NCBI RefSeq assembly: GCF_021028975.2
Contig: NC_059426.1
Location: 78,678,001 to 78,742,000 of the forward strand
Direction of reading: 5' to 3'
DNA length: 64,000 bases
Origin: Sphaerodactylus townsendi
Lineage: Eukaryota
Below, one piece after another: positions 19,303 to 50,019 of the stretch. Position 1 is the first letter of the stretch. Each line of letters opens with the position of its first letter. Position numbers and translations under genes: made by a program. The notes under the pieces are model-generated. The model searched no databases, was not told the origin of the DNA, and worked only from the letters and a program-made list of their open reading frames with translations.

Positions 19303-20044
19303 CTAGCGGGGCCTGGCCATGCGTTGCTGTGGCTTATTGTGGTGAAATGGGAAAGGAAGAGTAGCAGCAAATCAATTGCAGAGGCCAGCAGTACGTGCTC
19401 ATTGAAACGTGCAGGCTGATACTGTGCGATGTCATTGATGTTTGTGACCGCATCCTCCCTCACTTCTCTTCCCTTGCATGGCACCCCTCCCCCTACCTAC
19501 CTCCCCTTTCCCTTTGCTAGAGTGGGTGGGTCATATCCAGATGCTGTGCCCCCTTCCTCCCCTCCCTTACATGCCACTCCTCACTCTCTGTCCCCTCCCT
19601 CACTTCTCTTCCCTTGCATGCCTCCCCCTCCGTCCCTTCCCTCGCCCTCTGCTGAATGTGTATGAGAGTAGGTGTGTTTTGTGGTAGCAGTGGGTGAGGC
19701 ACAGAGAGTGAAAGGTACCTGCATGTGAGGGAGGGGAACTCCACCTGGTCTCTCACATGGCAACGTGTGTATGTGTTTCAAGTCCACTCGAGTTATTGCC
19801 TATTTCACTGCTCATATCTGGCCATCTGAGCAAACATTCTAAGGGCACGAACATTCTAAGGGTGACAGTTACACACAGGCAGCTTCATGGCTGGCTCAGG
19901 TGTGTTGTCTGACAGCGGAAGGTACGTAAGAACACAGTCGGGGGAGTGAGTAAGTGTCTGTGAAATTTTCAGAGTGTTTGGGCCAGCAGGTGCAGGGTTA
20001 TTCTCAAAGCAACGAACACATGGTTCCATTTTTATATATAGAGA
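19303..20044 (-). mobile_element. Non-autonomous Helitron with complete termini
   Basis: Minus strand reads A|TCTCTATATATAAAAATGG at the 5' end and ...GCCACAGCAACGCATGGCCAGGCCCCGCTAG|T at the 3' end (subterminal hairpin plus CTAG). Inserted between A and T with no TSD. Confidence 0.88.
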
Positions 20045-20988
20045 TTCCAAATCATAGCCAGATTTTGAAGCTCAGAATTGCATCAGCATTCCACAGTGTC
20101 ACTGTGTTTCAAACTGATTTTTCAAGCCAGTAAAGAGAATGTGGGATGGCACGCTAAACAATTAGTTTCAAAGAGCTTTTAATTTTTAATCACCACACAC
20201 AGTTTATCATCTTCAGGGCTGCAAGGAGTGGCAGCTGTAATTCTCTCTGATTTACTCGATCCATACATCAGAAACTCATTTTATTCCTCAGGGCTATGGG
20301 AAATCTTGATGCAATGGGACAAAAGAGAAATAAATGACTCTTGGACGAAATGCCGGAGTGTTAAAACAAAAATACTGCAAGCAATAGATTTTGTTGTAAA
20401 CTAATGCCAGGAGACCCGTCAAGGAGAAGCAGCTGTTGCGTGATGTGTTATTACTTATGGTGGTGAAGTCTGCGTGCCTGGCTGAAGTGCTGTTTGTTTG
20501 GAACAAAGGGTGAATGCGGCTTGGAAGCAAAGCAGGCAAGAGGAAGAGCACAGTTGGTGGGAGAACGGATTATCTTCCTAGAGCTTGGCACGCATATCAT
20601 GGCAGCTTGCAAGTGACTTCTTCATGCTCTTCTTATGTGTTCGTTTGTTTAATTAACGTGTTTGTAACTGGCCCTTCCTATTGCTCAGAGCATCTTTCAA
20701 TAAAATATAGAAACAAATTCATAAATTCTACTTAAAGGATAGTTGAAAATAAAAAATTTACAGGACAGAATAAAACATTTTCAACAGTGTACCTTCCAGA
20801 CAACCCATCATCCTTCCATGTAAAGGCCTTTACTAACACATAGACCTTGTATGACTCAGGAGAGAAAAATACAAGCACATCTCTGAGAGGAGGTCATTCT
20901 ACAACTCTGGAGTAACAACAAAGAAGGCCCTATACCTTGCAGGAGATGTTCAGACTTCCCCAAATGAGACGATATGTATTGCGAAATT

Positions 20989-21275
20989 GAAGAAAAAGAT
21001 TTATATCCCCCTTTCTCTCCTGTAGGAGACTCAAAGGGGCTTACAATCTCCTTGCCCTTCCCCCCTCACAACAAACACCCTGTGAGGTGGGTGAGGCTGA
21101 GAGAGCTCCAAGAAGCTGTGACTAGCCCAAGGTCACCCAGCTGGCATGTGTGGGAGTGTATAGGCTAATCTGAATTCCCCAGATAAGCCTCCACAGCTCA
21201 AGTGGCAGAGCGGGGAATCAAACCCGGTTCCTCCAGATTAGAGTACACCTGCTCTTAACCACTACGCCGCTGCTG
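20989..21275 (-). mobile_element. tRNA-derived CORE SINE (Squam3-like)
   Basis: Minus-strand head with A box ggcgtagtggttaag and B box gggtttgattccc, CORE motif gggtgaccttgggctagtcac...ctctctcagcctcacccacctcacaggg, and a (ctt)n-like tail. Sits in an old L2 remnant. Confidence 0.85.
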
Positions 21276-22664
21276 CTGCTGCTTGAACCCCTGAAGATGA
21301 TCTCAATAGGCATGTGGGCTCTTACAAGGAATTTAGACTAAGGCCAAGTGGTACTATTGCACTCTTCAATATAGTCAGCCTCCCAACAGATGCTGTAAAA
21401 GGACATAGAAGGAGCTTTCTGACAGACTGGTCAGCAGTTCCTTCTTAGAATGCATTGACTTTACTTTCGACCTCCTCTGGCATTCTCCCCCCCACCCTTT
21501 GTCTTTTTCATCTCTGACTGTTCAAATTCTTCTGCCTGTTGGCTTCTGACTCTACTATGCTGCCTGTATTCCTGATTGTCCCTTGGAGCAGACACAGCTC
21601 TTTATTGTATCCAGGCCCACAGGCCTTCCATCTCCAGTCCAGGTGGGTAACAAATGCTTGCCACCTATGCCAGTTCCCTCTGGATATAGCAAAAAGCCAG
21701 ACCTGCGTTTGTGCTGTGTTGCTGCCCCTGGCTCAGTAGACATGATGCAAAATTAAAACAAGGGCAGGAGCTGGATGTGCACCGTCGTGAGTGCAACAGT
21801 GGCATACTTTGAGCTTGCTTTTGGGCATACGTGCCAAAAACAGTTGGCTACTGCTAATCTGTTTGATGTTCCTTTGCTTTGTGTCATGTATTCTTCACCC
21901 GTGAAAAGGGAACAACTGACTTTACTTCTTGGTTCTGATTGAATCTTGAGAGCTAGGAATACACTTTCAGCTCATGGCTTAACAGTCTGTAGCTGTAGGT
22001 CCATGTCTGCTGTCAAGAGTTCAGTGTTAGCACATAATCTCTGTTGGGAGCTAACTTCTCTTTGATGACTATGAAATCAGATAAGCTTGGATAGAATCCT
22101 TATTACCACTTAAAACAATCTGGTTTAGATACTAATGCTTCTGAAGGGAATGTGTGAAAACCTTTTCATTTTAGCTAATGATGTGGAGGATTTAACTGTT
22201 GTTGGGACTTAAGGGAATCTTGTTTTCTCACACATAGAGTAGTATGAGCTACATTTCCACTGGGTGAGAAGATGAATAGGAGAGGTGTTTGGCTAATTCG
22301 TTCTAATCTCTGCCCCCACCATCCTTGGGGAGCAAGCTGGTATGAGACAAATCTTGCTATGCAAATAAAAATTAGAAAAGCGTCTGCTTAAAGTTGGTTT
22401 TTAAATTCTTGTATCATGAACTGTTCCTTAAATGGGAAAGAAATGGAAGTTGTACAATGCCTTAATTTTATTTATTACACTTTATCTGGGAAATTGTACT
22501 AATTTGCATGAGTAACAGTCATTAGAGGTCATTGCATCAGTCTAGGACTGAAGAGATCTGAATTCAAAACCATTGGCACAACCACATATACACGTCCTTT
22601 CCAGACCCTATGGAGACTTCTGGGTAACACTGGTCTCTTTGCTTTGGTCCTTAGCCAGTGCAGT

Positions 22665-22990
22665 CTGGCGATAGGCTTAGGAAAATATTTTTTATATTTT
22701 TCTGGCGGTAACACTATTAAATTTGATAAAGAGCTTCTGGTGAGTGACTATATCAAAAGCTTTTTGGATGTTTGAGTATATAAGATTTGCTGATTCACCC
22801 TTGTTTACTCCTCTGTTGACCCTCTGAAAGAATTCTAAAACACTGGTGAAACAGTGCTTCTCTTTCACCAATCGTTCTGGCTTGTCCTCAAGAAGGCACA
22901 TTCTTCTTTATGTATTTAACAATTCTGGTTTTAATATTGCTTTCTACCAATTTTGCCTAGAGCAGACAGTAGGTTGACAGAGCTATAATC
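22665..22990 (-). mobile_element. Old CR1 ORF2 fragment
   Basis: Minus-strand translation ...CFTSVLEFFQRVNRGVNKGESANLIYSNIQKAFDIVTHQKL resembles the CR1 RT motif (VDIVYLDFQKAFDKVPH). Confidence 0.8.
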
Positions 22991-22991
22991 C

Positions 22992-23035
22992 TGTGTGTGT
23001 GTGTGTGTGTGTGTGCGTGCGTGCGTGCATGCGTG

Positions 23036-23068
<33 letters not shown>
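22992..23068. repeat. Compound microsatellite (TG)n(TGCG)n(GA)n
   Basis: Direct reading of the sequence. Confidence 0.95.
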
Positions 23069-23071
<3 letters not shown>

Positions 23072-23570
23072 AGCTTTATCCATTACATATTCCTTACAGG
23101 GTCTGTTCAGGTATGTTGATGAGAGCATCATGGTTATGACCTCAGGCTTTTGCTGGGCTGCATTCTGGAATGTCCAAATTGCTCCCATGGAAATAATAGA
23201 AAACTTTCACATGTTAAAACTGTGGGTACATTGTAACATGGTGAATAGAAACAGCCTCTGGCAGTGTGGTATGGCTCCAGTTGTATGGACCTTCCCAATC
23301 AATAGCCCCTTTGCAAGGAGATTTTTTGTTGGGGTTGTTAGAAGGTCAGCATCTTAGAACTAATCGCTTCTTAAAGTTGCCAGGGTATGTGATAAATTTG
23401 AGCATTAGAGGTACAACAATATAGAGTTATTTAAAGAGAATGGGGCCAGCAGCTGCTGTTACAAATACTATAAATGCTATTACAATAATATTATGTTGTA
23501 AAAAAGTACTTTATTATCCTTGTTAGTTAAGATTGTAAGAGAATATCCTCACAGAAAATTAGCCAGAATT

Positions 23571-23710
23571 GTCAAAGGCTCTCACGGCTGGATTCAGCTG
23601 GTTCTGGTGGGTTTTCCGGGCTGTGTGGCCGTGGTCTGGTGGATCTTGTTCCTAACGTTTCACCTACATCTGTGGCTGGCATCTTCAGAGGTGTGTCACA
23701 GAGGGAAGTC
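23571..23710 (-). mobile_element. Penelope-like element terminal fragment (second subfamily) with hammerhead motif
   Basis: Shares ttccgggctgt.tggccgtg...cgtttc.cct.catctgtggctggcatcttcagagg with 43163-43258; minus strand reads CCT-CTGAAGA-T-GCC...GGT-GAAA-CG-TT-AGG at 23651-23691. Confidence 0.75.
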
Positions 23711-24113
23711 ATAGACAAATAAATGGATGTGAAATACAGCTGAATAGAATGATAGGCTTTTCTCAGAAACACCCTATGTATAATGCATGACAAGTATTAG
23801 CTGCTTTTCTGGATGCAAAGGGGCTTACTTATAACTGAGTAAGCAGTTTGTATGGATCCTAATCTGATAACAAACACATGAGCCACTGATTAGATGCATT
23901 TTCAAGACAATACAAATCATTTAGATGCACCCAGACTGTTAGGATGAACAATGAGGCAGTTTCTCCTGCTGCTGTTGTATAGCATGTACAAAACTAAATT
24001 CTCCAATTGTATGCTTATATTAGTAATTATTTGGGATTACTTTGTTTAAATGGTGGACAGTCAATCGAAGAATATGCATTTCAAGTTTGAGTAATTCACT
24101 TTCTAACCTCTTT

Positions 24114-25666
24114 ATAAGAACATAAGAAAGAGCCTGCTGGATCAGACCAAAGTCCATGTAGTCCAGCACTCTGCTACTCGCAGTGGCCCACCAGGTGCCT
24201 TTGGGAGCTCACATGCAGGATGTGAAAGCAATGGCCTTCTGCTGCTGCTCCCCCCCGAGCATCTGGTCTGCTAAGGCATTTCTAATCTCAGATCAAGGAG
24301 GATCAAGATTGGTAGCCATACATCGACTTCTCCATAAATCTGTCCAAGTCCCTTTTAAAGCTATCCAGGTTAGTGGCCACCACCACCTCCTATGGCAACA
24401 TATTCCAAACTTCACACATTGTGTGAAGAAATGTTTCCTTTTATTAGTCCTAATCCCCCCCCCCCCAGCTTTTTCAATGTATGCCCTCTGGTTCTAGTAT
24501 TGTGAGAAAGAGAGAAAAATTTCTCTGTTAACATTTTCTATCCCATGCATAATTTTATAGACTTCAATCACATCCCCCCTCAGACGTCTCCTCTCCAAAC
24601 TAAAGAGTCCCAAACGCTGCAGCCTCTCCTCATAAGGAAGGTGCTCCAATCCCTCAATCATCCTCATTGCCCTTTTCTGCACTTTTTGTATCTCTTCGAT
24701 ATCCTTTATGAGATGTGGTGGCCAGAATTGAACACAGTACTCCAAGTGCGGTCGCACCACTGCTTTATATAAGGGCATGACAATCTTTGCAGTTTTATTC
24801 TCAATTCCTTTCCTAATTATCCCCAGCAAAGAGTTTGCCTTTTTCACAGCTGCCATGCATTGAGTTGATATTCCCATGGAACTATCAACTAAGATGCCCA
24901 AATCCCTTTCCTGATCTGTGACTGATAGCACTGACCCCTATAGCGTGTATGTGAAGTTTGAATTTTCCCCCCCTATGTACATCACTTTACATTTTTTTAC
25001 ATTGAACTGCATTTGCCTTTTCTTAACCCACTCACCTTATTTATAAAGGTCCGCTTGGAGTTCTTCACAATCCTTTGAGGTACACCCTACATAATTTGGT
25101 ATCATCTGCAAACTTGGCCACCACGCTACCTACCCCTACTTCCAGGTCATTTATGAATAGGTTAAAGAGCACTGGTCCCAAAATGGATCCTTGGGGGACA
25201 CCACTCCCTACATCTCTCCATTGGGAGAACTTCCCATTTACACCCACCCTTTGCTTCCTGTTTCTCAACCAGTTTTTAATTCATAGGAGGACTTCCCCTC
25301 TTATTCCTTGATTGCTGAGTTTTCTCAAACGTCTCTGGTGAGGAACTTTGTCAAAAGCCTTTTGGAAATCCAAGTAGACAATGTCCACTGTTTCCCCCTT
25401 ACCCACATGCCTGTTTACATCCCCAAGAACTCTAGTAAGTTTGTGAGACAGGACTTGCCTCTGCAAAAGCCATGCTGACTCTTCCTCAGCAGGTCTTGCT
25501 TTTCTACATGTTTAATAATTTTATCTTTAATGATAGATTCTACTAATTTGCCAGGAACAGATGTCAAACTGACTGGCCTGTAATTTCCTGGGTCCCCCCT
25601 AGATCCTTTCTTAAAGATTGGTGTGACATTGGCCATCTTCCAGTCTTCAGGGATGGAGGCTGATTT
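24114..25666 (-). mobile_element. 5'-truncated CR1 LINE (RT to 3' end)
   Basis: Minus ORFs give [71 protein letters not shown] and [12 protein letters not shown]; (ttcttatg)n-type tail; possible TSD ctcttt (24108-24113, 25667-25672). Confidence 0.95.
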
Positions 25667-28600
25667 CTCTTTGAATGAGCAAGGAGTTCTGATCACTCAT
25701 CCCCTTTTCCTTCCATAATTTGAGTGCACAAGATGAAGGAGTATAGCTCCAGCATGGGAATCATTTGCTTTTGGGTGAGGGGGCAGGGACAAGGATGACT
25801 TTGGGCAATTGGGCCCAGTGCTGGCCATGAGCCAGTCAGCTCTCAAACAGCTTCCTGCAGCCTCCCCTGAAAGTCAACCCATCATGGGACAGTTGCGACT
25901 TGCAGACTTGTAGGCTGCAGGTTCTCTCTGGTCAACCACTCAGATTGAAAGCAGCAGGGCTGAAGAGGTGTTTGGCAATCCACAAGTCTCTCTTGACAAA
26001 GAGAAGTTCTCATTTGAACCCCTTACTAACTCAGAGGACAAGGCTAATTATAGTGTATTCTTTCATTTCCACCCCTAATACCACTCCTCTTCTCTCAGTT
26101 ACTCCATCAAGAGGGTTGCAGAAGGTGCTGACAGCAGTTGGGCTGTCAATCTTACTCACAGCCTATGCTGTGCCAAGATCTGAGGAACCTGGAATCAATA
26201 AAGTGTGGCTGATTCTTCCCATTGTGTTTGTCTGTGCTTCTCTCCCCTACCCCATGGGTTAGTCCCCATCCTGGCACAACGGGAGTCTGTGCTTTGTTGA
26301 ATGTGTCAAGCCTGTTTCTTTAAAATAGCATTTCCAGTTGAGCTCTAAAAATTCAGAAAATGTGCCGGTCATTTACCCAGTCAAAATGAGAGCCCTGGTT
26401 CATATCTTAGCTCACAAGGCCAGAATGAATACACACTGACTTGTTCACAGATCTGGCCTCCTTATATTACATTAAAAGCTGTCCAGAGAATATAGATAAG
26501 AAAGAGAGCTGGCGGAAGTGGTGTGTATTTGCTGTAAGTGCGTGGATATAAGGGGGTGTCAAAAGTAATTACTCAGTACCAGCATTCAGAACTTACTGCA
26601 CTTTTAATTCAAGATGGGGTAAATGCTGCCGTCATCAGGATGCTAGCTGAAGGTGTCATCTTTGATAAACACGGCCAGCTTCACATATTTCCTGTGAAAT
26701 CAATATAGGCTTGGTACTTATTTGCTAATATATCATGCCATCTCTGCAGTTCCCCCCCCCCTTCTTTGTCACTCTGTTTTGTTTCAGTGATTAGTGTCTC
26801 CTTTCACTGTGGCAATGTGAGAGCCTTCCAGGAAAGCTATCAAAATCATCCCTGTTAGTGGGTTTGTTTGTGTTTTATTCCACACAGCAGCAAACTCTGA
26901 AAGCTGTCAGGAGCCATTGTCTCATCACTCTTCTATGAATTGTTTAGCACCACAAACAAGGGATGGCGTGCGATCAGGGAAAGGGGGGAAAGCGCTGTAT
27001 TAATAACCAAGTAAAATTTCCCACAAATCTGAAGTCCTCAGATGTCAAATGGAAGAAATCAAAATGGGCAGCCAGCAGAGAACAGTGGGAGCATGAGTTT
27101 TTATGCTCATCAGTCTCATCAAAGTCTTTGCTATTCTAATTCTTATGTATAGTAGCAATTTAACAAGAACAATATTCCAATTATTTTATACATTTGGTAT
27201 CCTACAAAACCTGCAACATTATAATATATATTTAAAGCATAAATAAAAAACAAACAAATTGAATAAACTGTTGTATTGATATGCCCAAAACTGTTTCCAA
27301 AAATTTTGCTGAATAGGGAGAAAACGTTTAATGGCACAGTTGCTCAAACGTCAGTGGCTCTTTCTATGGACAATATGTTCCACTGGGCGGAATTCATTAT
27401 TCTGGTCACAGGATGTATTCAAAGAAAACATTCAGAAGGGTACTTTGCTAGCAATGTGACTATTTTTCTTGGCCATTAGTTCAGGCCTTCCTAATTTCTA
27501 GCTAAAAGCTTTTCATTCCCTTGTTGATAAACCAAATGAGACATGCTTCAAATTTTCTTCCAGAAGGCTCTGTTGTTTAGTTATTTCTGTAGTTTTCATG
27601 CTTTTCCCTCTCTTTTTTTCTTTTGGAAGTAAGTTGTGTGGTGACATTGTCAGTATAGTTCAAGTTTTCCTCTCTGCTGAAGGAAAGATTTATCTTTGAG
27701 GTGCTAATATGAGCAGTCACATTCCCTGCAATCAAGGAGTGCTCAACAATGCTCTTCTTAATCTTGCTGGTAATGCACATCAAATGTTGCCATTCATGTT
27801 CATCCAGACTGTGACAACCATGGCAGTCTGTTATCATCTTAAAGAAAGGTTTGATTCTACTCTGCAATAATTAAATAGAAATGTAAAGCAGTCTTCAAGC
27901 CTTATTTTTCATTGTTTATTTTTCATTGCAAGATAATTGAATAGTACTTGTTTATGTTAGTTGAATATCAAACTACGCCGGTTTATGTAGTCAGTCATAC
28001 ATTCATTTATTTTTACTATTGGATCTTATGCCTGTTATTATTTTATGGGCCATCAGTCTATCTATATCAAGCTTGTCACCCACCAAACCAAACCAAAAAC
28101 ACCTTCATAGTGTGCCCTGCAAAGCACTTGATATCACCCCTGTTTTGCAGTCCCAGGCAGGCAGTTAAAACAGGAGGTTCACCATGCTGTTAGTAGGCTG
28201 TCATTACAGACATCACTCATGAGCATCGTTCAACAGGGCAGCACATGAGTTGTCCAAACTTTGATCTGCATCAGTGCAAAAAACTTAGGAATGGTTTGTC
28301 TATACTTGGGTGACCCAGAAGATGAATGTAAAGAAATTGTGAGTACCCAGATTCTCAGTAGAGATTTCATCTCTTCTATGCTGATTGCTAAGGGCATGTG
28401 GTTAGATCCTGTGATGCATCAGTAAAAATGGTCACATCTTTCTTTCATTCCCTTCCCCAAGCACTCCTTTCTGATTCTGGGAAAAGGTATTAATGGACTC
28501 ATAGGACCCAATGGAGTAATAGTCACTTGGGTTGGGAGACTGTAGTTAGATCAGAACTGCTGTTCCTGCCTCTCCCATCAGTACAGCTCTGCTGGTGGAA

Positions 28601-28821
28601 AAGTGAGGAGACATCAGTTTTGCATCTTTTGCACTCCCCAGTGCAGCCTTCTGACCTGTTGGCTGTTACCCCATATGGGTCCTACATCCCTGAAAATAAA
28701 TATTCCTTGGTCTGAAAAGGTTTGCTAGGGGAGTGGAGGGAGACTGAGGAGAGATCCATGATCCTTGTGTCTGCCAATGTGATATAGAGTTATAATGTTG
28801 GATCTGGGATACCCAAGTACA

Positions 28822-37300: not shown

Positions 37301-38235
37301 TCAACCATAGGATATTATAGCCTCAATATTTTAAACAACTCATCTTCCAATCTACTAGTATTGTGGCTTTTAACTTGTTTAAAAGTATACAAAAATATGA
37401 GATTATGTATTAATCTATGACAGGCTTATGTATTAAGAAATCAAGAAAAGAAACTTGATGTTTAAAAGTGTTCTGCTTCTAACGCTGGACTTTATCAAAG
37501 AATTGACAGCAGAATCTCTGCCAGTAGCATGGAATGTATTCAGGGAGATGTAAAAAGGTGTTTGAGAGAGTGGTTGAAATTGTCCCATGAATGATTTCCT
37601 GTCAATAGATTTCACACAGAGAGATGCAGATATTGATCCATGTCTACTGTTTCAGCTTCTATTGTTTTAATAGCTTGCGGCAGGAGCTGAAATGGAGGAA
37701 GGTGATATTGACAAGTCAGTGGGCTGGCATGAGACCACTTCAGTGAGCAGAAAGAGGAAAAGGGGTTGGCCTTCTCAAATATCATGTTGTAAACCGCAGG
37801 ACATTCTGTATCCACTGTTAACTTTTCTCAGATCTGATATGAGGTAAATTCTTCAGTGCCAGGAATCCATGTGTCTAGTCATGGATGAATCCATTTCACC
37901 TCAATATAGAACTGGATCGACAATTACAAGCATCATTAGAGGCCACTAAAAGTATAAACTTACTAGTGATATATTGCTTTCTCAGCAGAAGCAAAAAACT
38001 CCTCACACAATAAACAGACAAATGAAAAAAGGAAAATGTATTAGGAGAGTGTGGAGAGACAATTATAATGCCACGGCAATGAAGGCTGGAAAACTTTCTG
38101 GAACTTTGACAGACAAACTTTCTGGGATTGTGTGACTACTTTTCCAAAGGCTCTGGAGTATTCCTGGACTTACCCATTGTTTACTGGAACCTTCAGATAA
38201 ACAGTTCTGTCTTATAATTTCTGGTTTACCTAGGA

Positions 38236-38391
38236 CAGGGGTAGGGAACCTGCGGCTCTCCAGATGTTCAGGAACTACAATTCCCATCAGCCCCTACCAG
38301 CATGGCCAATTGGCCAATTGGCCATGCTGACAGAGGCTGATGGGAATTGTAGTTCCTGAACATCTGGAGAGCCGCAGGTTCCCTACCCCTG
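38236..38391. mobile_element. Very young palindromic hAT (Buster-type) MITE
   Basis: Outer arms of more than 50 bp are perfect reverse complements (caggggtagggaacctgcggctctccagatgttcaggaactacaattcccatcagcc); perfect TSD acctagga (38228-38235, 38392-38399). Confidence 0.95.
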
Positions 38392-39623
38392 ACCTAGGAG
38401 GATTGATGACTTCTTCCTTCCTTAAGCTATGTAACAGACAGAAGTGAATGGGGTGCTAAAGGCAGCAAGAGATAGTTTCTGGGCAGGGGGGTGGAAGCAG
38501 AGAAGGGAGGGAATATTTACTTTTAAACTGGGTTAAATTTAAAGAGGAGCTTATAAAGTTGGGTTGGCTATTGTATGAGGTAACTTCCACTGGGAAATCC
38601 CTGACAGTATGGTAGCCATACCATATATTTTCTGAGGTCACATTGTTTATATTGCTACCATGTATTTTCAGAGGTTACATGATTTATATTGCTGCCATGA
38701 GAGAAAGGAAGAAGAGAGGCGAAGATTGGAGTCCCTCCCCCCCCCCCTGCATCATTGAGAATTTTGATGATATGGGACAAGGGTTTCAAGACATCTTAGT
38801 GCCTGAGACTTCCCCCACCCCACCCCCACCCCCACACATACATATAGATCTTGTGTTTTTCATGGGTAAAAATATAAATTACGGTAGTTCAGTCGTTCCC
38901 TAAGACTTCTACCTTGTTCTGCCTAATAGTACTGCCATTATTTGAAAAATGGGGGCTGTCCCCTTGACCTCCAACCCTGTATTTTGAGTGAAAGAACATG
39001 CAATTGGCTAGATTGCTCAACCTGAAAGGGAGAGTGTGCCTGTTTGTGTGTGTATCATATGGTGAGTAGGTCTGCCTATCAGCTGTTTAAATTTCTTTGA
39101 AGAAATGTCCTCACACGCTGTGCTGGTATAAAACAATTTATTTCCCTACTTTTTTATTTCAGTGCTGGGAAATAATGTGTGCTTATTCCTTCAATTCAAC
39201 CATGGCTCTTCTATAGACTTCTGTTTGAATTGCATAATCCATACTGCAGGTTCCCAGCCATTATTTGTAACTGCTTTGGTATTTCCAAGACAAAGCATTT
39301 AGAATTCCTTCTGCAGAAAATTCCTCAGCAGCCATGAGTTCTTGAAGCCCCCATTAAAGAGTAGGAAATAAGCTAGTTTTCTCTTGCTTAGTGTCTGACT
39401 CACTAAATCTTAAAGGGCTATCACATGGAGCAAAGATGCTTATGTTTTTAAATTTCAGTGGCTTTGTTTAAAATAGATATTCCACACAGCTCTAGAAAAT
39501 GCTCCATTGCCGTATTAAAATCAATGACCTGTAAGTTCCAAAGTAGGATAAAACTGGTCCTTTAATCCAGATGTGAAAGGCTGTGATCTCCTTTAACTAT
39601 GCTGGAAAATCACAGCCTTGAAA

Positions 39624-40382: not shown

Positions 40383-41790
40383 GTTTATTTTTGTTGGTTT
40401 GTTTGTTTCACTTAATATACCGTCCACCCCCGAAGGGCTCTGGGCGGTGTACAGTAACATAATAAAATGGTACAATATAAAACCCCATAAAATACAATAA
40501 AACTATACATTATTTTAGATGGGACATCTAAAGATAGCGAAGAACATTTCGTTCCATGGGGCTGGCCCAGATGGTATAACCACAGAATAGAATACATGGT
40601 GAGATGGAACAAATTACAGGGATGGCACACAGTCAACGGCTACCCCCTCCAAAGGCCCAGTGGAATAATTCTGTTTTACAAGCCCTGCAGAACTGTTCCA
40701 GATCCCACAGGACTCTAACAGACAATAGTAATGAGTTCCACCAGTCAAGGGCTAAGGCACAGAAGGCCCTAGCCCGGTTGGAGGCCAGCCATATCATGGA
40801 GGGGCCAGGGGCCACCAGTAAATTGGCCTCTGCAGAACACAGAGGTCATGTGAGAACATATGGGGTGAGATGGTCCCTCGGGTACGAGGGCCCCAGACTG
40901 TGGAGTGCCTTAAAGGTTAATACCAACCTTGAAGGTGATCCAGTATTCTGTTGGGAGCCAGTGCAGCCGGCGCAGCACAGGAGAGGTATGAGCTGGACCA
41001 ACTTCAGCTTCCGGATCAACCGCAAGGGAGGCCTGTATAGAGCAAGTTGCAATAATCTAGTCTAGAGCTGATCATAGCATGAATCACAGTGGCCAAGTCG
41101 ATCTGGGAGAGGTAAGGGGACAGCCATCGTTCTTGGCACAAATGGAAAAATGCCACCTGGGCTGTATGGGCTACCTGAGTCTCCATGGAAAGAGAAAAAT
41201 CCAGGTGGACCCCCAGGTTAGGATCCAAGGAGGTCAGTGATAGAGGGATCCCACTGAGCATTGGTGGCTGAAAACCCTCCCCTCCCCCTTCATGACCCAC
41301 CCACAGGATCTCCATCTTAGATGGGTTAACCTGCTTTGCTGCAACCAACCAGCAACTGCCTTCAAACAGTGCTGTAGAGCCGCAGGGCAGTGGCCGGCCT
41401 TCCCTTTATCAACAGAATGAGCGGAGTGTCATCAGCATATTGATGACAGATCAGCCCAAAACTTTGCACCAACTGAGCAAGGGGTTGTATATAGATATTA
41501 AACAACAATGGGGATAATAGGGCCCCCTGCAGCACATCGCATTGAAGTGAGCACCACTGAGAAACCTTATCCCCAACCCTCACTTGCTGACTCTGTTTCC
41601 AAAGGAATGAGGCAACCCATTGCAGGGTCACGCCCTGGACCCCAGAAACGGCCAGCCAGTGGGTCAAAAGGCCGTCATCGACCATGTCAAATACTCGGTA
41701 AGGTCTAATAATACCAGCAGCACCAATCAGCCCTGGTCAAACTGCATGCGGAGTGTATCTGTGCCAGTGGTCAGGATGGTTTACCACCTT
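40383..41790 (-). mobile_element. Older L2 LINE (RT to 3' end), multiple frameshifts
   Basis: Minus ORFs give QGALLSPLLFNIY, QYADDT, SRLDYCN and APGPSMIWLASNRARAF; same family as 10276-12556 but CpG-decayed. Confidence 0.93.
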
Positions 41791-41930
41791 GTCTGCTTTT
41801 TGTGAATGTTAGACCCTATGTCAAGCTATAGCTCAGTCATCAGTAAAGACTGCTGATTTGGCTACAATCCTCAAACTACAATAAGAGTTGCCAAAGTGAT
41901 CCCAAAGAATGTGTGTCCATGCAGCCCAAT

Positions 41931-41958
41931 CACACGCGCACGCGCGCGCGCACACACA
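41931..41958. repeat. Alternating purine-pyrimidine (CA)/(CG) tract
   Basis: cacacgcgcacgcgcgcgcgcacacaca. Confidence 0.9.
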
Positions 41959-42991
41959 AATACAAATGTAAGTCCTTTGACTTCAGATAGGCTTACACTG
42001 AAGTAAATGAACACAGGATTTCAACTTTGGAAAGATTTCCTTATGCAACCTGAGTGGGGGAATGACCTATCAGTGAGTCTACTTGATGTACCACTGGTCT
42101 GTCAAAGGCTATAACAATGGAACCTCCAAGCGATTCAGAGACAATGTATCTTCAGAGATAAAATGCTGGTGGCAGATATTAGTATGGAACTATTTTTTTA
42201 CTATACATTAGTATGGAACTATTTTAAGGTGGATATAACCCTAGCACCTTTTAGGGACATATAGAAGATCAAGCTGAATGCCAGTAAAGGCAGCTGAGTA
42301 ATTTACATGAAAGCCATAGTGAATGTGGGAAGAAGGTGGAGACTGCAGCACTGAGAAACTGCTATGATCAACAGTGTAGCGGCAGCAGTAGTAAGTTATG
42401 CAGTAAACTACTTCTGCTCCCCCCCATACCTTCTGTTGAGTCCCAGCACACACCAGGGCCTTTTAAAAAAGCAGCGTAGTGAATCTTAGCCTATAGGCAC
42501 TACCTCAGCAACCTCCTCCTGATACCATCTTAGTCACAGAGAACTTCTGTGGTGAAATATGTCTCACTGTGAAGAAAGATTAATCTTCTTTATGAGGATC
42601 TAGGTGAATGCTTTGCATTGGGATTGTGTTGTCTCAAGGCATAAATCTTTGTTATATCAGCAGCCTGCAGTCCCACTGAACCAGAGCAAAGCTCGTTTTT
42701 ATTCTCCTTCTTATTTATCATGTGGGTTGGAAAGTTCACTTAAGAAAGAACTGCATGATTTTTTTAAGGGTTTGCTTGTATAGTCTTCATTGCTCCTTGG
42801 CCCATTCTAGTTATTCTTCAAACTTGGTTGGTCCCCTGGATCTGACTATTTTCAGAATCATAATAATTAAAGGTGTCTATAAGTGATATTTGAAAGGAGG
42901 TGGAAATTCTACCAACAAGCTATGACTATAGTAAGCTATATGACTGTGTATAGTAACACTCCTTAGTATGAAACTATTTTTAAAAAGCACA

Positions 42992-43133
42992 GGCCCCTTC
43001 CGCACATGCAAAATAATGCGTTTTCAAACCACTTTCACAACTGTTTCCAAGTGGATTTTGCTATTCCGCACAGCTTCAAAGAGCACTGAAAGCAGTTTGA
43101 AAGTGCATTATTCTGCATGTGTGGAATGAGCCC
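42992..43133. mobile_element. Second copy of the Harbinger-like palindromic MITE
   Basis: ggccccttccgcacatgcaaaataatgc...gcattattctgcatgtgtggaatgagcc; same family as 39624-39775. Confidence 0.75.
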
Positions 43134-43162
43134 CAGATAAACCCCAAAAGCTTTGTCTTTAG

Positions 43163-43258
43163 TTGGGTGCTGTGTGGTTTCCGGGCTGTATGGCCGTGTT
43201 CTAGCAGCATTCTCTCCTGACGTTTCGCCTGCATCTGTGGCTGGCATCTTCAGAGGAT
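43163..43258 (-). mobile_element. Short Penelope-like insertion with 12-bp TSD
   Basis: 96-bp insert flanked by ctttgtctttag (43151-43162, 43259-43270); homologous to 4503-4600 and 23571-23710. Confidence 0.85.
43215..43257 (-). ncRNA. Minimal type I hammerhead ribozyme motif (Penelope-type)
   Basis: Minus strand UCCU-CUGAAGA-U-GCC[agccacagaugca]GGC-GAAA-CG-UC-AGGA: helix I UCCU/AGGA, intact core, 3-bp helix II, palindromic ACGU in place of helix III, GUC cleavage triplet. Activity not tested. Confidence 0.75.
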
Positions 43259-44355
43259 CTTTGTCTTTAGCACTTACAATTTGTCTTTAGCACTTACAAA
43301 GACCTTCATTGGAAATCACTGGCAATCAAAATAACCATGTAACTTCTTGTATGCCCTGCACTTATCCTATCAAATACACAATCTAACAGATGGGATGTGC
43401 ATTTGAATATTTCCAATCCAACTGTTGGGTTTCAGATCAGGAATTCCCCAAAATGAAGTTGGGTACATACAAAATTTGGGTATATCCAAAATTCATCTCT
43501 TGACATTTCAGGATTGTTACAAGTTATTTTGGCAGTGTTCATTCTGAGCCCAGGTCTACTTTCATTGTTTTCACTGAATGGCACACATGGCCTCCAGATT
43601 TTTATTTATTTTGCCATATTTTTATCTCGCCCTTTCCAAGATACGAGAATCTATCCCCCTGCCCAATTTCCATGTCTAGCATCCAGACAGAGGCCAGATC
43701 TCCCCAAACCCAATATTCTTGAAACAGATTTTAGAAATAATACCAATATTCCCAACATTTCAGGAAAACAATAATCCCAACCTTTCTGAAAAATCAAGTT
43801 AAAAAACTTTTGAAGTGAGTACATGTAACAGGACACTCAGCTATTATTATTAAATACATGTCTGTAAATACAACACAATACATTTCCAGCTCAACATAAC
43901 TAAATTCAGTAGACTTATTTGATATTGGAACCCATTTTTTGAAGAAGAATGGAGGTGGCATGTGAAAGAGCCATATGTCGCTCTTACGCTGCAAAATGAA
44001 TACCATTAGTTTAGCACAGTGGTATCATTGTAAAGATGGCCAAGATGACAAAATTTTATTCCCATCTTTAAGATCTAAAATCAGGGAGGACAAGAAAGGG
44101 AGGGAGAAAAGATACATAATCAGAGAAGACAAGAATGGGGTGGGGGTGGGGCAGATTAGTAGGTTGGATCCAAAATCCCCCTTCTAGGTATGGAAGGACA
44201 CTTGCACTTGTACAAATGGGGAAGCAATCTCCCCACTTTCCCACTTTCTCTTGCCGACTTCCATGTCATTTTTCAAGAGCCTGCTGACCCTCATGAGCAG
44301 CCTTTTGAGGGGCACAGGGGTGCTGCACCAGAACAAGTGATTTAGGAAATCACTA

Positions 44356-44645
44356 GAGAGCCAGCACGGTGTAGTGGTTAAGAGCTATGGACTCTAAGCT
44401 GAAGAGCAGGGTTTGATTCCCTACTCCTTCACATGAGCGACCAACTTTTATCTGGCAAACAGGTTTTGTTTCCCCTCTTCTACAAATGAAGCCTGCTGGG
44501 TGACCTTGGGCTAGCCACAGTTCTTTTCAAATTCTCTCAGCCCCACATACCTCACAAGATATCCGTTGTGGGAAAGGAAAGAAAGGAGTTTATAAGCCAC
44601 TTTGAGACTCCTTATGGGAGAGGTGGGATACAAATCCCAACTTTT
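44356..44645 (+). mobile_element. tRNA-derived CORE SINE (Squam3-like)
   Basis: A box ggtgtagtggttaag, B box gggtttgattccc, CORE gggtgaccttgggctagccacag, tail gtgggatacaaatcccaacttttct. Confidence 0.85.
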
Positions 44646-46113
44646 CTGCCAGTATAGTTCCCCTTTTAGTTCTTGATGTATGATCTAATAATGGGTGCCA
44701 GCCAAAGTGCCTTTAAAAAAGAGTTAAATTAATTCATAAAGGACAAGTCCAACAATGGATACTAGTCATAATGGCTAAATGGGAACTGCAAAAAAAAAGG
44801 TTATTGCCTTCCCCCCTTTTTATACAAGCTTTCTTGGCATATACCCTATCATGTCATTTAAGTTTCAGAATTTTAAATAAAGGAAAATTTGACGAATCAT
44901 TTTGGGAGACAGAGGGCTGAATTAGATGACACTTTGATCTGATACAGGATGATCACTCTCTTTGTAATCCAGTTTTCAGCAAATGCTATCGAGACAGTTT
45001 GCAATAAAACAATTACAAATCAATAAACAATCAAATTTCAAAAATACATACAAAAATCCCCACCATTTACCTTAGATATGCCACTGGTAGAATGCTGTGG
45101 AGTTCACCCTCCAAAGAAGCCATTTTCTTCAGGGAAATTGATAACTGTCCACAGGGGAACGGCTGTAGTTCCAGGAGATCTCCAGGCTCCACCTGAAGAC
45201 TGGCTACCCTAATCCAACAGGTGGATTGGCAGGATGAATCACTGTTAGTAGTCTGACTGTCCACTGCACTGCTGTCCTTTATCTCCCTTTTTGGCTGGTC
45301 TCCCCTCTGGGCAAAAGAATTAAGCAAATTAGCAAAATAATGGTATGCTTTACTTCCATGGTAAACTTTTGAATGCCAATGCCAGAAGGCAATGTCAGGG
45401 AAAGGGCTCAGCCTCTATGTCCTGTTGTTGGGCCTCCAAAGGAATTGGTTGGCTTTTTAAATTTTATTCTGGGAATTTGCAAATTGAAAGGTTTGACATT
45501 TACTCATCAAATGAGACCTTAAGAGCCTTGATTGAGCCTTCTCAACCATAGAAGTTTTAGGAGCTTCAAGTTGAAGGCATAGTAGATTTTCACCTCCTAG
45601 AATGAGTTTGCTTGCTGCTGGTTCTGTCGCACAATTTGTGCTCTGTTCTATCAGCATACGTTTGTTAGCTGGAGGAATTGCTGACTCCTGCTTCTTTTTT
45701 TGTAGACGAATAGCTTTCTCTATAAAACTCAGTTGAAGGAGCTACCTAGAAGTATGCAGATGGGACAATAACCAAAGGTCACCGAAAACCACGGGAGCTC
45801 TTTTCTATGATTTCAGAAAGGGCGACTGCTGCAATTCAGCAGCTTTCAGCTTCATGTGACCCCCATGCATCTGTGAACCATAGTGGTTTTTTATAACACA
45901 CAACTTCCTCTGCCTGCAGTCTTTAGATATATTTGGGAGTCATCATTTTATTTAATACATTGTCGTAAAACAGTTTTATTTGTTTATTTTCCACCCTATG
46001 AAATGGCTCAAAACAAAAATGATTTAAAAATCATAAAAGTCACTGCTGTTTAAAATAGCAAAGTGATTTCAATGAGCTGCGGTACACACAAAGCTAGTTC
46101 AATCCACAATGGA

Positions 46114-46301
46114 TAGGGTTGCCAGCTCTGGGTTGGGAAACACCTGGAGATTTGGGGGTGGGGGCAGAGGAGGGGGTTGAGGAGGGGATGAACTTTAGTG
46201 GGGTATAATGGCATAGAGTCCATTTTCTGCCATTTTCTCTAGGGGAACTGATTTCTGTTGCCTGGAGATCTCCAGCCATCACCTGAAGTATGGCTGCCCT
46301 A
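46114..46301. mobile_element. hAT MITE with TAGGGTTGCCA-type TIRs
   Basis: tagggttgcca...tggctgcccta with degenerate TSD acaatgga/gccatgga. Related pieces at ~45070-45211 and 61548-61698. Confidence 0.75.
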
Positions 46302-46627
46302 GCCATGGAAATTTCTGCCTTGAAAGGCTTGGAGGAAAAAAATATATGTGTAAACTAAGTGCCTACTAAGTGGTTTTAGATTGAAATAGCTTGTTAGATT
46401 TTTCTCTTGTGTTCCCTGTCCTTAGAAAAAGTTCAATCTTACTAAATTAAGAAAATTCTCCGGAAAGGGAGAACGATGCTTAAAGGAATCTCTCTACAGT
46501 TGCCTTCTTTTTCTCTGTTTATGGTGTTCCAACTGCAAGACACTAGTTCTAAAATATGAGAAAGGTTCATATACCTTTAGATATACTGTGCTTGGGGCAG
46601 GGTATAGAGCTATCCAATGTTTGTACT

Positions 46628-46842
46628 TTTTTTTGCTGACAAGTCACAGCCTACTTACGAACCCCCTGTAATGTTTTCACGGCAAGAGATATTCTCATAT
46701 TCACAGCTAGTTTGCTATTGCCTGCATCCGCATAACAACCCTGGACCTCCGTTGTCATCTCCTATTCAAGTATTAATCAGGGATGACTCTGTTTAACTTC
46801 TGAGATCTGCTGAAATCAGGTTAGCCAAGGGAAGCCAGATGG
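46628..46842 (-). mobile_element. 5S rRNA-derived SINE with Sauria/RTE-type tail
   Basis: Minus-strand head ctgatttcagcagatctcagaagttaaacagagtcatccctgattaatacttgaataggaga resembles the 5S rRNA internal promoter region; it is followed by gcaggcaatagcaaa...tctcttgccgtgaaaac...gtgacttgtcagcaaaa, a Sauria-SINE/BovB-like tail. Confidence 0.7.
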
Positions 46843-47690
46843 GATAAAACTACATACATGGCCAGAGGTTGTTTGAGCTCTCTTCTGTAACCACTTGCAC
46901 AGGAGGCTGGGGAAAACTGCTTTCTAGGTTAAAAACTGGCTTGCCTGTTGAACAGTGCAAGTGGTTCCACAGAAATCTGTAGTCTTGGCATCATGCATAA
47001 TCCTTTTGCGTGTACTTTTTCAGAATTTCAGTCTGACTCTGCAATTCCATTCCATTGTAAATGTGGGTTAGGATTGACCTCTAAATGCATCAATGTTATG
47101 TATTGAAATCAGTAAGACTGAAAAAGGTTCAGTGTGGCTTTGGTAGTCCAACTTTCTCTACTGAAGTGTTTTTTGCTACACTGAACACTCTGTGCAGAGT
47201 GATGTGTAGCCTCATGGAAAGCAATACAAGTAAACAAACTGGCTCACCTTACACAGGTACATAAGCCTAGGTATAACCAGAGGCATTTTTAGCAGAGGAA
47301 GAGGTGGGAAAGATTTTGCTAGCAGTAGCTGACTACCATCTGAACTGAGGTTTTTTCTCCTCTGGACAAATCAACACGTCTTCTGGTGTATCATACTGTT
47401 GGTCCATCACAGTCATCACTGTAAGTCATTTTCAACGTATCGTACTAATCTTGGTCAGTAAGCATTTAATATGATCCTGCAACAGTTCTGATTTATACTG
47501 TATTGTTCAGATCATTTTTTGAAGCTGTGCATCCTGTGTCTCTGCCTACAAAAATGAGGGGGTTGGTGATCAGTGGCTTTTTTGGGGTTGGCAACTCACC
47601 TTTGGAATGCCCTCTCCCTTCAGGCTTGTCAGGAACCTGCTTTATCTTCCAGGTCAAAACATTTCTCTTTACCCAGATTTCTAACTAAGG

Positions 47691-47838
47691 CCATGGTGGT
47701 GAACCTATGGCACTCCAGATGTTCATGAACTACAATTCCCATCAGCCCCTGTCAGCATGGCCAATTGACCATGCTGGCAGGGGCTGATGGGAATCGAAGT
47801 CCATGAACATCTGGAGTGCCGTAGGTTCACCACCACTG
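47691..47838. mobile_element. Palindromic hAT MITE (sister subfamily) inserted in an old L2 3' remnant
   Basis: Same core ctccagatgttcatgaactacaattcccatcagcc but different TIRs (..tggtggtgaacc / ggttcaccaccactg); perfect TSD aactaagg (47683-47690, 47839-47846). Confidence 0.9.
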
Positions 47839-48924
47839 AACTAAGGTATTTCCCTTTTTTAAGTTGTTTTTTTGTTATCTGCTCCTGAGGACTGTTTTTT
47901 TTTCTGTATCATTTTACATTGCTTCATTTTATAGACTTTTATATGCCATGCTACTTAGCTTTACAAAATGTAAAAGGGGAAAAAATCTGCAGATTTCACA
48001 TTGACTTGTCACAATGGACAATGCATCAGAGATAGCTGACTTTATAGAACTTCAAGATGTTCCCTTTTTCACTTTGGAGGACCTCTTCTTAATAAATATA
48101 GCCACAGAAAAGCCCATGTTTGCACATACACTTCTTTGTTCTTTTACCATAGTTGAAAGTGATGCTATTTTATCTTCTCTTCAATTGTCTAACACTGAGT
48201 TGAAGTTCATCAAGCATTATTTTTATGGAAGTGAGATTGGCTTGCTTAGCAAAAGAAGCTCTCTAGAGAACAAGGGGAAAAACCAGAGGCAGCAAACTTT
48301 TTTTCTGCTAAAGGAAAGGGAACAAGAAAGCAATCCTAGCAGAACTGGGGTGGGATGTATGCACAGGAACAGCAGGAGTCAGCGAGATCCAAATATTAAA
48401 TTACTTTAGATTTTTTCAAAGGAAATTGCTAAATTAAGTATCTGATCATGTCACCTCTATCTGAAAACTCTCTGCTATTGAATGCAGCAAAGAAAATCCT
48501 ACCCACTTGATTAGCCTAAGGAGAGATGAAACTGTGAAATATTAGGCAGGCATATCCCTGGTGTTTTAATTCCCCAAGTCTGGTTGAGGCAGATTCAGTT
48601 TTTCCTGCACATTAAATGTTGATATTATCTTGATTCATCTCCCTGACTTGCCTGCCCTACAAGGCTACAAGCTTCTGAGAGGCTGGGGAATGGAATGCAT
48701 ATGACGAACTGGACAGTGCCTACTTGCAGGGTAACCCTGGTCCTTGCCCTTTTATGCTGGTAATCTTGCTGCCATCATCTGGACTAGCACTAGATCATTT
48801 GGGGTAGGGGGATAAGGGGCTTCTGCCTTCTCCCTGTACTGTTTTCCTGAGTCAAAATGGCCCCTGTGGCACTTTTTGTCTCCTTATAAGACTGTGGTCT
48901 CACTTTAACACCATTTATAATCTA

Positions 48925-50019
48925 CTAGAAGGGCACCCATGGTTCGCTACGGATACTTCATCACAGACTCTCTATGAATTTTGGGGTGACATTCAACATA
49001 CTTCTTTACAGCCTGTTTGTGAACTTTGGGGTGACATGCAGCATATTTCCTCACAGGCTGTCTGTGGACTGATGGGTTTGTTTTCACATTATTTTGCAGC
49101 AGCTTCCTGTAGTTGTCTTTTTTAATGCAACGTGTTATTGCTCTCTTTCACCTGGTGGGCTCCAAAACATGTCATTTGGAAGCAGCCGATGTATTTTCGG
49201 GATGCAGGAAGGAAGTGTTCTGCCATTGGATGCTGATGAGTGAGAAGGCTGTGAAGAGGTTCAGGGTAGGGTTGAAGGACAGGGAGCTGGACTGTACAGC
49301 CACTGCAGCACATTCCTGGGGACTCATCCCACCACTTCAGAGCACGACACCAAGCACAGGGTGATCGGAGGCCGAGAGCAGTAAACTTGTCTCCACGGTA
49401 ATCAGTCTGATGTCCATATGCAAAACACGACAAATGTTTAGTAGTCCAAGGTGATAGTGTGGTTTGTAATCTGTTTTGATTGTATTTGGCTGTAGCGGTG
49501 TTGTTAACGTGAGGGTGGGTGAAGGAGTACTTTTTCACAGCCTGTCTGTTAACTTCGGGGTGACATTCAGCACACTTCTTTGCAGCCTGGTTGTGAACGT
49601 TGGGGTGACATGCAGCATATTTCCTCACAGCCTGTCTGTGGACTGATGGGTTTGTTTTCAAATAGGTTCACATGCATTGTGGAAGACGGTGTTAGAGTGG
49701 CACACTATGGTGAAGGACATGAAGCTGGTGGTGTTTAACTGTCACCCTTAGAATGTTCGTGCAGCATGTCTGTGGACTGAGGGGCTGGTTTGCCCTTAGA
49801 ATGTTCGCGCAGATGGCCAGAGATGAACAGTTAAACAGTAAATGTGTAACAACTCAAGTAAAACTGAATATTTTGGAAAAAAAAATCCTTTCTTAGTGAG
49901 CACCTAAACCACATAATGAACCGGTGTGCCAAATTTCAACTTTGTAGGTTCGGTGGTTTTTGAGTTCTTTTGATGAGTCAGTGAGTCAGTCAGTAGTATT
50001 TCACATTTTTAGATATAGA
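48925..50019 (-). mobile_element. Internally deleted Helitron with both termini
   Basis: Minus strand 5' end A|TCTATATCTAAAAATGTGAAATACTACTGACTGACTCACTGACTCATC...CTACAAAGTTGAAATTTGGCAC; 3' end ATCCGTAGCGAACCATGGGT hairpin plus GCCCTTCTAG|T; contains a RepHel fragment. Confidence 0.9.
49122..49661 (-). pseudogene. Helitron RepHel N-terminal fragment (15-aa repeats plus Cys-rich zinc-finger-like region)
   Basis: CAWCRALKWWDESPGMCCSG.VQLPVLQPYPEPLHSLL...HFL...RKY..CFQMTCFGA matches the typical animal Helitron pattern CxxCxAxKWxxExPGMCCxxGKVxLP..PEPL..LL..HFL..IRKYN..FQMTSFGA. Rep and helicase motifs are absent. Confidence 0.88.

Follow-up and report, generated by a model that had tools for sequence, protein, structure and literature searches.

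Two Helitrons lie some distance apart in a window of 64,000 nucleotides from Sphaerodactylus townsendi (contig NC_059426.1), and they share an internal segment that reads in opposite directions relative to their own ends. How did part of one element come to lie backwards inside the other, and does it do anything there? A preliminary description of the locus proposed inverted capture of one family's leader module by another, with silencing or a cis-acting function as possible consequences. Our answer, which we hold to be very probable, is that a piece of the B type, from Helitron lineage F2, was copied once, as filler DNA and by template switching; it now lies inverted in three families of a second lineage, F1, where it has since been a neutral passenger.

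Elements A and B

Both elements run from TC to CTAG on the minus strand between a flanking A and T, with the ends originally assigned to them. They belong to two abundant non-autonomous Helitron1 (HLE1) families, with consensus lengths of 778 bp (A) and 1087 bp (B). The 5'-TC and CTRR-3' ends are present in the window copies and in most family copies of each. Both window copies are inserted between A and T, with no duplication of the target, and a T follows CTAG in nearly all family copies compared. Each consensus has, as judged by eye, a GC-rich palindrome just before the 3' end. The parts of element A are as follows.

19303..20044, minus strand: element A, a non-autonomous Helitron1 of lineage F1 (742 bp; family consensus 778 bp); its ends, TC and CTAG, are flanked by A and T
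19891..20044, minus strand: 5' terminal region, with homology to RepHel-coding F1 elements at their 5' ends (scores 97, 74 and 73 against three of them)
19777..19890, plus strand: inverted F2/B 5' piece; 14-mers at 19833-19846 and 19850-19863, 17-base spacing
19651..19776, minus strand: F1 leader core; it comes after the inverted piece in all three families (A, C and D) and is also found in module-free F1 elements
19454..19650, minus strand: GA-rich internal repeats, common to family D by sequence comparison
19303..19453, minus strand: 3' terminal region, where the GC hairpin and CTAG lie; it shares 93.6% identity with the 3' end of L172, an F1 copy that bears RepHel

Element B is built as follows.

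48925..50019, minus strand: element B (1095 bp, subfamily B2), which is non-autonomous and arose by deletion within lineage F2; its ends, TC and CTAG, are flanked by A and T
49698..49868, minus strand: donor-equivalent segment of the F2 5' region in native orientation; 14-mers at 49792-49805 and 49744-49757
49763..49793, minus strand: 31-base filler between the two 14-mers, a copy of the F2 RepHel N-terminal coding repeat
49122..49667, minus strand: 181-aa fragment from the RepHel N-terminus, with 75% identity to F2 copy L130 (which carries Helitron_like_N)
48925..49147, minus strand: 3' region, in which the RepHel N-terminal repeat occurs a second time, followed by hairpin and CTAG (sequence comparison)

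The RepHel reading frame at B had been taken for that of an autonomous element; in fact B is non-autonomous, and what it holds there is the 181-aa N-terminal fragment. RepHel-coding relatives exist for both elements: A shares its 3' end with L172 (93.6%), its 5' end being only about 70% identical to F1 copies, and the 5' end and RepHel fragment of B match L130, L173, and L122. The dispersed copies with precise ends suggest that A and B were mobilized in trans by their cognate RepHel proteins. The window copy of A has lost 29 bases of its 5' region, those that hold the junction hairpin discussed below (L246 against other copies; loose ends at 19891).

Two Helitron lineages

The preliminary description regarded the B lineage as the autonomous partner of A. 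This pairing fails: the ends of A belong to a separate lineage, F1, and B belongs to F2. PF14214 and PF05970 are matched on reading frames of both lineages, the transposases of which are only 45-56% identical. Among 22 PF14214 and 35 PF05970 matches (19 and 14 stretches examined), none was a RepHel-coding element that shares the 5' end of A, nor was there an autonomous element among the best 30 matches to that end. Because no such coding element was found, an autonomous F1 subfamily may already have carried the piece. Upstream of RepHel in one F2 copy (L120) lies an OTU-like stretch, which has no Pfam match at E <= 10.

The shared segment

Aligned in opposite orientation, A and B score 97, against 22.3 +/- 2.3 (maximum 32) in 200 base shuffles. 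In the same orientation no alignment exceeds 28, a score that reflects merely the terminal TCTATA...AAAAATG. The inverted sharing noted at the outset is therefore real, over about 120 bases, whereas its limits required correction, to about 19777-19890 (A) and 49698-49868 (B). An alignment of the family consensuses spans 125 columns and contains 13 mismatches and one 31-base gap. In full, the piece measures about 170 bases and is found inverted, with identical junctions, in three non-coding F1 families: A, C, and D. (The last 20 or so bases of the B segment are retained by family D alone.) As anticipated, it is fixed in the 742-bp family, being present in 29 of 30 A copies retrieved by the 5' end alone.

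Could the piece be a small repeat in its own right, inserted separately into each Helitron? Its occurrence in four families and in both orientations might suggest so, but it has neither termini nor a target duplication, it contains filler from F2 coding sequence, and it replaces F1 sequence rather than interrupting it. Module-free F1 leaders can be aligned with A, C, and D on either side of the piece, and comparison with L242 and L113/114 shows that about 600 leader bases are gone; the leader core that follows the piece lies some 730-860 bases from the 5' end in module-free elements (base 728 in L242, base 862 in L113/114). Moreover, 197 of the 198 occurrences in the retrieved loci are either inverted in F1 (135) or in sense in F2 (62), and the last lies inside an F2 copy (L119). 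An independent repeat thus deserves almost no credence, and a nested transposon with its own ends, the case that the preliminary description named as fatal to its proposal, is largely refuted: no occurrence is free-standing or lies outside the two Helitron contexts (0/198).

Donor and direction

That the A lineage took up the piece from the B lineage in inverted orientation is upheld by two observations. First, 7 of 14 C-type matches, and 9 of the 23 D-type copies that carry the module, keep the full 48-base spacing of the 14-mers, with antisense F2 coding filler in between. L130, L116, and L122 contain the RepHel N-terminal repeat that this filler matches. Second, a midpoint-rooted tree of the module (152 columns; rows L040 and L166 left out) places the 23 inverted copies in one clade (98/91) within a clade that holds all 12 B copies (97/88). 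The F2 copy L120 groups among B2 in this tree. Because C and D copies keep antisense F2 RepHel filler and the inverted clade nests inside B, transfer evidently ran from F2/B to F1. The capture is older than family A and is common to C and D.

The donor itself was not the RepHel-coding element first envisaged, but a non-autonomous one of the B type. Family C with full filler differs from subfamily B1 at 6 of 148 columns, and from F2 coding copies at 17/89, at best, to 32/99; identity of the piece to B1 is 92-96%.

The reverse transfer, in which B acquired the piece from the A lineage, is highly improbable. The tandem 17-mer of A is indeed the simpler form of the duplication. However, older F2 coding copies contain the piece in a more diverged form that has just one 14-mer, and F1 coding copies lack it; the inverted copies nest within B; and filler-bearing C and D copies refute this direction, barring later gene conversion that returned the filler. 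An exact pattern search for B-type sense elements with A's 17-base tandem gave none among six matches, all six being of the F1 type.

The 14-mer is duplicated in both window elements, as had been noticed, with a spacing of 17 bases in A and 48 in B. Among family copies the spacing is variable (17, 29, 41, or 48), and two A copies carry one 14-mer. The suggestion of an orientation-independent cis element fares less well: doubling is absent from all eight F2 copies that retain leader sequence and from mobile F1 elements, so a needed cis role is unlikely. By these comparisons the doubled 14-mer is a derived scar.

Junctions and proposed course of events

The piece resembles filler DNA in each respect compared: it is internal, its source can be identified (B1), a junction shows short homology, and the acceptor has lost about 600 bases. 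Families A, C, and D can form a hairpin at one junction (-9.2, -9.2, and -9.0 kcal/mol, against -0.5 to -4.6 in five of five module-free F1 copies), with z-scores that are modest (-2.6, -2.7, and -1.5; one module-free copy reaches -1.4). Microhomology there spans an observed 7 bases; the 1-2 bases at the other junction are within chance. Together, the fold-back hairpin and 7-base microhomology point to template switching. Fold-back strand switching recurs in these Helitrons, in which three hairpin or inverted junctions are seen.

Two other sources of the arrangement were rejected. End bypass (3' transduction) does not fit a piece that is inverted and near the 5' end, with no CTAG end before it. 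The F2 leader repeats its own 5' end in inverted form; this repeat is ruled out as the cause of the inversion because the captured piece stops at a B-type junction that lacks it.

These features suggest the following sequence. The piece is native to F2 elements, at bases ~145-320, with one 14-mer. An ancestor of B acquired a second 14-mer, the two being separated by a 31-base filler that matches the element's own RepHel coding repeat and was presumably copied from it. During repair or replication of an F1 element, the growing strand would have folded back at a motif conserved in F1, around base 150-165, and copied about 14 bases in reverse; it would then have moved, through the 7-base microhomology, onto a B template, copied this in antisense, and rejoined the F1 leader at the 1-2 base overlap. 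The product has the form seen in the F1 families: B-type piece and filler in reverse, about 600 leader bases gone, and fixed junctions. Tree and junctions suggest a single event, and capture as a DNA-repair patch is likely. Later loss of filler through 3-base microhomology may have produced the 17-base tandem of A, and F1 subfamilies may have swapped termini, giving rise to families A, C, and D. The F1 transposase would have spread the carriers through their F1 ends, the piece itself remaining idle.

Does the piece matter?

Common origin leaves room for the piece to have been retained as an aid to transposition, whether as second-strand origin, promoter, or transposase-loading site, in either orientation. 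We consider this quite unlikely. In its favor, three F1 families with differing ends keep the same core of about 270 bases, and an F1 helicase stretch gave 61 first-look candidates, compared with 4341 for A and 3053 for the core of C (these are not copy numbers, and the queries overlap). The core includes F1 leader too, however, and therefore its retention need not involve the inverted piece. Carriers also predominate among 30 D-ended copies, 23 against 6 without the piece, even with a module-free query; drift or short length explains this surplus, as would an advantage. Against such an aid, F1 elements with both ends but no piece have spread as well (all eight family-E copies; copies of 692, 853, and 931 bp), and 14-mer spacing and number vary as described above. 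No constraint on the piece was seen (3.0% versus 2.5% divergence, p = 0.14); post-insertion divergence gives no measure of constraint on the source elements.

Captured fragments can provoke small-RNA conflict, according to the portion of PMC12001565 consulted. Here, antisense RNA or piRNA from the inverted piece would target the F2 5' region and so allow F1 families to suppress their rival, a reading to which we assign very little probability. Its 92-96% identity to B1 would suffice for small-RNA pairing, and A-family sequence occurs in RNA reads of a related sample. Yet F2 was not shut off, because B amplified at an age similar to that of A and C (mean divergence 4.5%, 4.8%, and 5.3% for B, A, and C). 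B copies, lying on both genome strands, would yield antisense read-through even without A, and the reading presupposes a putative 5' promoter in A as well as a place for the piece in the F2 transcript. In three RNA runs of the related sample, reads cover all of A with strands about equal in every bin. Either unstranded libraries or copies in the two orientations would account for this, and it carries no weight on silencing. The piece is likely an inert passenger rather than a silencing device.

More broadly, it is unlikely that the inverted piece gave F1 carriers an edge, be it a replication aid or anti-F2 antisense RNA, and was for that reason passed between at least three F1 terminus pairs. 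If true, this would be a transposon armed with a competitor's fragment.

Significance and known systems

Donor, direction, junctions, and intermediate forms are all preserved within one genome, making this an unusually well-resolved filler capture. It shows that two Helitron lineages with transposases 45-56% identical exchange DNA when jointly active, and that family libraries will cross-annotate F1 and F2 on opposite strands. The case would weigh more if the piece boosted transposition or silenced the rival lineage; natural variants with the piece, without it, and with filler allow direct testing of its function.

Searches of the open literature (subscription papers and Repbase/Dfam being outside their scope) found no report of inverted filler DNA by template switch in non-autonomous Helitrons, of Helitron antisense or siRNA with gene-fragment orientation, or of Helitron fold-back hairpin junctions; on chimeric Helitrons with antisense captures, nothing concerned a cross-lineage inverted piece.

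Several systems offer partial parallels, compared here from excerpts of each report. In Anolis carolinensis (PMC3014272), too, two autonomous Helitron families have abundant non-autonomous derivatives that captured other repeats, and termini and core are exchanged between families, as shown there for hobo/hAT. Its Helitron families differ in that they are reported as internal deletions of one parent; the excerpts describe one composite family with Poseidon and SINE pieces and do not mention a cross-lineage Helitron piece. The Pack-TIR gap-filling or FoSTeST model (PMC8277862) likewise invokes template switching guided by microhomology (1-36 bp), followed by amplification through transposition, but concerns terminal-inverted-repeat transposons that take host DNA. 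Helraiser and Helibat (PMC4778049) share cross-mobilization of non-autonomous Helitrons through terminal sequences. Their end bypass, in contrast, adds flanking DNA at the 3' end on the same strand, and therefore cannot account for a piece that is inverted and takes the place of leader 170 bases in from the 5' end.

Filler-DNA capture by non-autonomous Helitrons, with short junction homology, is already described for Hel1 of Spodoptera frugiperda (PMC6544945). Hel1 also has an internal acquired segment, short homology to the source at the junction, stepwise gain, and later amplification. The present piece differs: it comes from another Helitron lineage, stands inverted in place of leader DNA, and has a fold-back hairpin at one junction. 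The present case is a clean example of this already known filler-DNA capture.

An inverted segment common to two Helitrons

The window contains two non-autonomous Helitron1 copies, A and B. Their positions and minus-strand TC...CTAG ends, as put forward in a preliminary description, are confirmed in its sequence:

19303-20044, minus strand: element A, TC...CTAG, between the bases A and T
48925-50019, minus strand: element B, TC...CTAG, between the bases A and T

The sharing of a segment in opposite orientation is likewise real, and well above chance: local alignment of A with B in that orientation scores 97, against 22.3 +/- 2.3 (maximum 32) in 200 shuffles, whereas in the same orientation only the first 20 bases are common (score 28). 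Self-comparison of the window resolves the segment into two inverted matches, 19800-19847 and 19845-19889. (It also returned a 1.6 kb direct repeat, 85%, at 24114-25667 and 54263-55912; a 1.2 kb inverted repeat, 70%, at 11026-12209 and 40632-41763; and short palindromic, MITE-like dispersed repeats at 1579-1753, 7686-7794, 38227-38399, and 47695-47848.) Contigs from run X5 span both A junctions (19150-19325, 5 differences in 176; 19995-20200, 4 in 206), and the A insertion is therefore common to the X5 sample.

Searches yielded 48 matches for A and 46 for B, with 40 scored for each from 4341 and 2796 first-look candidates, respectively; these are not copy numbers. Consensuses from the top 30 loci each are 778 bp (A) and 1087 bp (B), from which copies diverge by means of 4.8% and 4.5%. 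Family B comprises two subfamilies, B1 and B2; the copy in the window belongs to B2. Fixation of the inverted module in family A, a check proposed at the outset, was assessed using only A's first 130 bases as query, which avoids selecting for the piece: it is present in 29 of 30 loci (one with its last third only, one with it interrupted), and the one other locus breaks off at base 145.

Two autonomous lineages

Across the genome, Pfam searching produced 22 matches to Helitron_like_N and 35 to PIF1; 19 and 14 stretches, respectively, were fetched around the better ones. These RepHel stretches form mainly two groups, F1 and F2, with protein identities of 45-56% across most aligned blocks. One F1 copy (L113:1418-5977, minus strand) has a 1520-aa open frame with both Rep and PIF1 helicase domains; its leader nevertheless contains insertions.

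Element A is homologous to F1 in three places: the 5' end, bases 312-428, and the 3' end (93.6% to F1 copy L172). Its shared piece is unmatched in three F1 leaders (scores 20-26 in either orientation). The 181-aa frame of B is 75% identical to F2 locus L130, and B is an F2 deletion derivative. F2 elements have the piece in sense orientation, at roughly bases 145-320. Leader sequence is kept in eight of ten F2 loci scanned (the region is gone from L115 and L122), and none of the eight has two copies of the 14-mer, the short motif doubled in A and B, closer than about 780 bases. The B lineage had been proposed as A's autonomous partner. F2 is therefore not that partner, and the doubling is a derived state.

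In F2 copy L120 the RepHel frame extends upstream past its presumed start. This extension (L120:5551-6198, minus strand) includes a short stretch that resembles the OTU-protease histidine motif; it has no Pfam match. Older F2 copies (L116:3268-3483; also L119, L121, and L177) have, upstream of the RepHel frame, a B-like 3' end made up of a coding-repeat copy, a hairpin, and a degenerate end; the long F2 element thus seems to contain an internal terminator that it reads through.

Other carriers of the piece

A search pattern joining A's tandem to the B-type bases after it gave six matches, all of F1 type, and exposed two further families. Family C (about 1000 bp) has ends resembling F1 copies L118 and L126, and carries the piece in 30 of 30 loci. 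The 5' end of family D resembles F1 copies L185 and L242; among 30 loci found with it, 23 contain the piece (22 by strict pattern, plus L302), one has the junction only, and six are without it. Families A, C, and D have in common a core of about 270 bases: F1 motif, inverted piece, F1 leader. In module-free F1 elements (L242, L113/114) the two F1 parts sit about 600-700 bases apart; the piece thus replaces leader DNA.

Donor and direction

Between its 14-mers, B carries a 31-base filler matching the coding repeat at the N terminus of F2 RepHel. Family C carries this filler in antisense, either whole or shortened; the shortened form gives a 41-base 14-mer spacing (29 counts in 30 loci). A filler-pattern search returned 15 matches, one in B and 14 of C type, seven of the latter with the full 48-base spacing. 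The 23 piece-bearing D-type loci include nine with full filler, ten with a 17-base tandem, two at 29 bases, and two with a single 14-mer detected. The tandem in A corresponds to what remains once the filler has been lost between two GCA triplets.

Compared with full-filler C, B1 shows 6 differences in 148 columns, B2 shows 12 in 148, and F2 coding copies show between 17 in 89 and 32 in 99. In a midpoint-rooted tree (41 copies, 152 columns; L040 and L166 left out), the inverted copies, 23 in all, group as a single clade (support 98/91), nested within a clade of 12 B copies plus L120 (97/88). Capture of an inverted module from another Helitron lineage, as first proposed, therefore stands as to B-lineage origin; the donor was of B type, close to B1, rather than one of the more distant coding copies. 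Most likely, a non-autonomous F1 ancestor took up the segment once, inverted, as filler DNA from a B-type element, and three families spread it.

Junctions

The 5'-nearer junction consists of an F1 motif, a 4-base loop, and the reverse complement of that motif (12 of 14 bases), whose last 7 bases double as the first 7 of the B-derived piece. The 50-base junction folds at -9.2, -9.2, and -9.0 kcal/mol in A, C, and D (z -2.6, -2.7, and -1.5), against -0.5 to -4.6 kcal/mol (z -1.4 to +0.8) for the same region in five module-free F1 copies. The other junction shares 1-2 bases. (In the window, a 29-base deletion has removed the hairpin from element A.) From these features we infer a fold-back and template-switch origin, in which a strand would fold back on itself at the F1 motif, switch to the B template, and, after copying B, return to the F1 leader.

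Comparable scars are present nearby. A second hairpin lies where C leaves F1 homology (-8.5, versus -1.1 in L242), and in three of seven F2 copies tested the element's 5' end recurs, inverted, in the leader (scores 95, 43, and 39; shuffle maximum 31):

L130:3831-3899 (also in the L169 and L177 leaders): 5' terminus of the element repeated in inverted orientation, about 320 bases downstream of the 5' end

Such leaders have the module flanked by two 5' ends in facing orientation, an arrangement that could give rise to double-stranded RNA or offer another site for nicking.

Function and occurrence

There is no sign of a function for the piece. Its non-CpG divergence (97/3199 sites, 3.0%) compares with 165/6559 (2.5%) for the neighbouring F1 parts (p = 0.14). 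Among 198 distinct occurrences in the fetched loci, a non-random sample, 135 are F1-inverted, 62 are F2-sense, and one is within F2 copy L119. Among short F1 elements, those with the piece are more numerous than those without it, which counts against a neutral reading; an advantage conferred by the piece is judged unlikely. As to the silencing trigger first suggested, reads from three RNA runs cover the whole of A in about equal numbers on each strand, as expected of unstranded libraries or of copies lying both ways round. Some short F1 copies lack the module yet keep both ends, and family E (L291-L298; F1 ends, 2.2-6.5 kb with insertions) is dispersed with the piece in none of eight copies.

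Family E is an F1 deletion derivative whose leader holds a variable array of about 114-base repeats. Helitrons also occur as head-to-tail or adjacent pairs: C directly followed by D (L164/L212, L223), D by C (L225), and E by C (L204). D lies near C in L284 and L290.

Relation to known systems

A search of openly accessible papers turned up no report of one Helitron lineage containing an inverted segment from another. Published work describes related processes: filler-DNA capture with 2-13 bp junction homology in insect Helitrons (PMC6544945); microhomology template switching in Pack-TIRs (PMC8277862); composite non-autonomous families with exchanged termini in the anole (PMC3014272); internal blocks of varying order and orientation in rice Mothra (PMC4683698); and cross-mobilisation and end bypass by Helraiser (PMC4778049). 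Genes captured by Helitrons are reported to be biased to the Helitron's own orientation (PMC12001565). The defining features of HLE1, and an OTU upstream of its RepHel, are reported in another source (PMC11417382).
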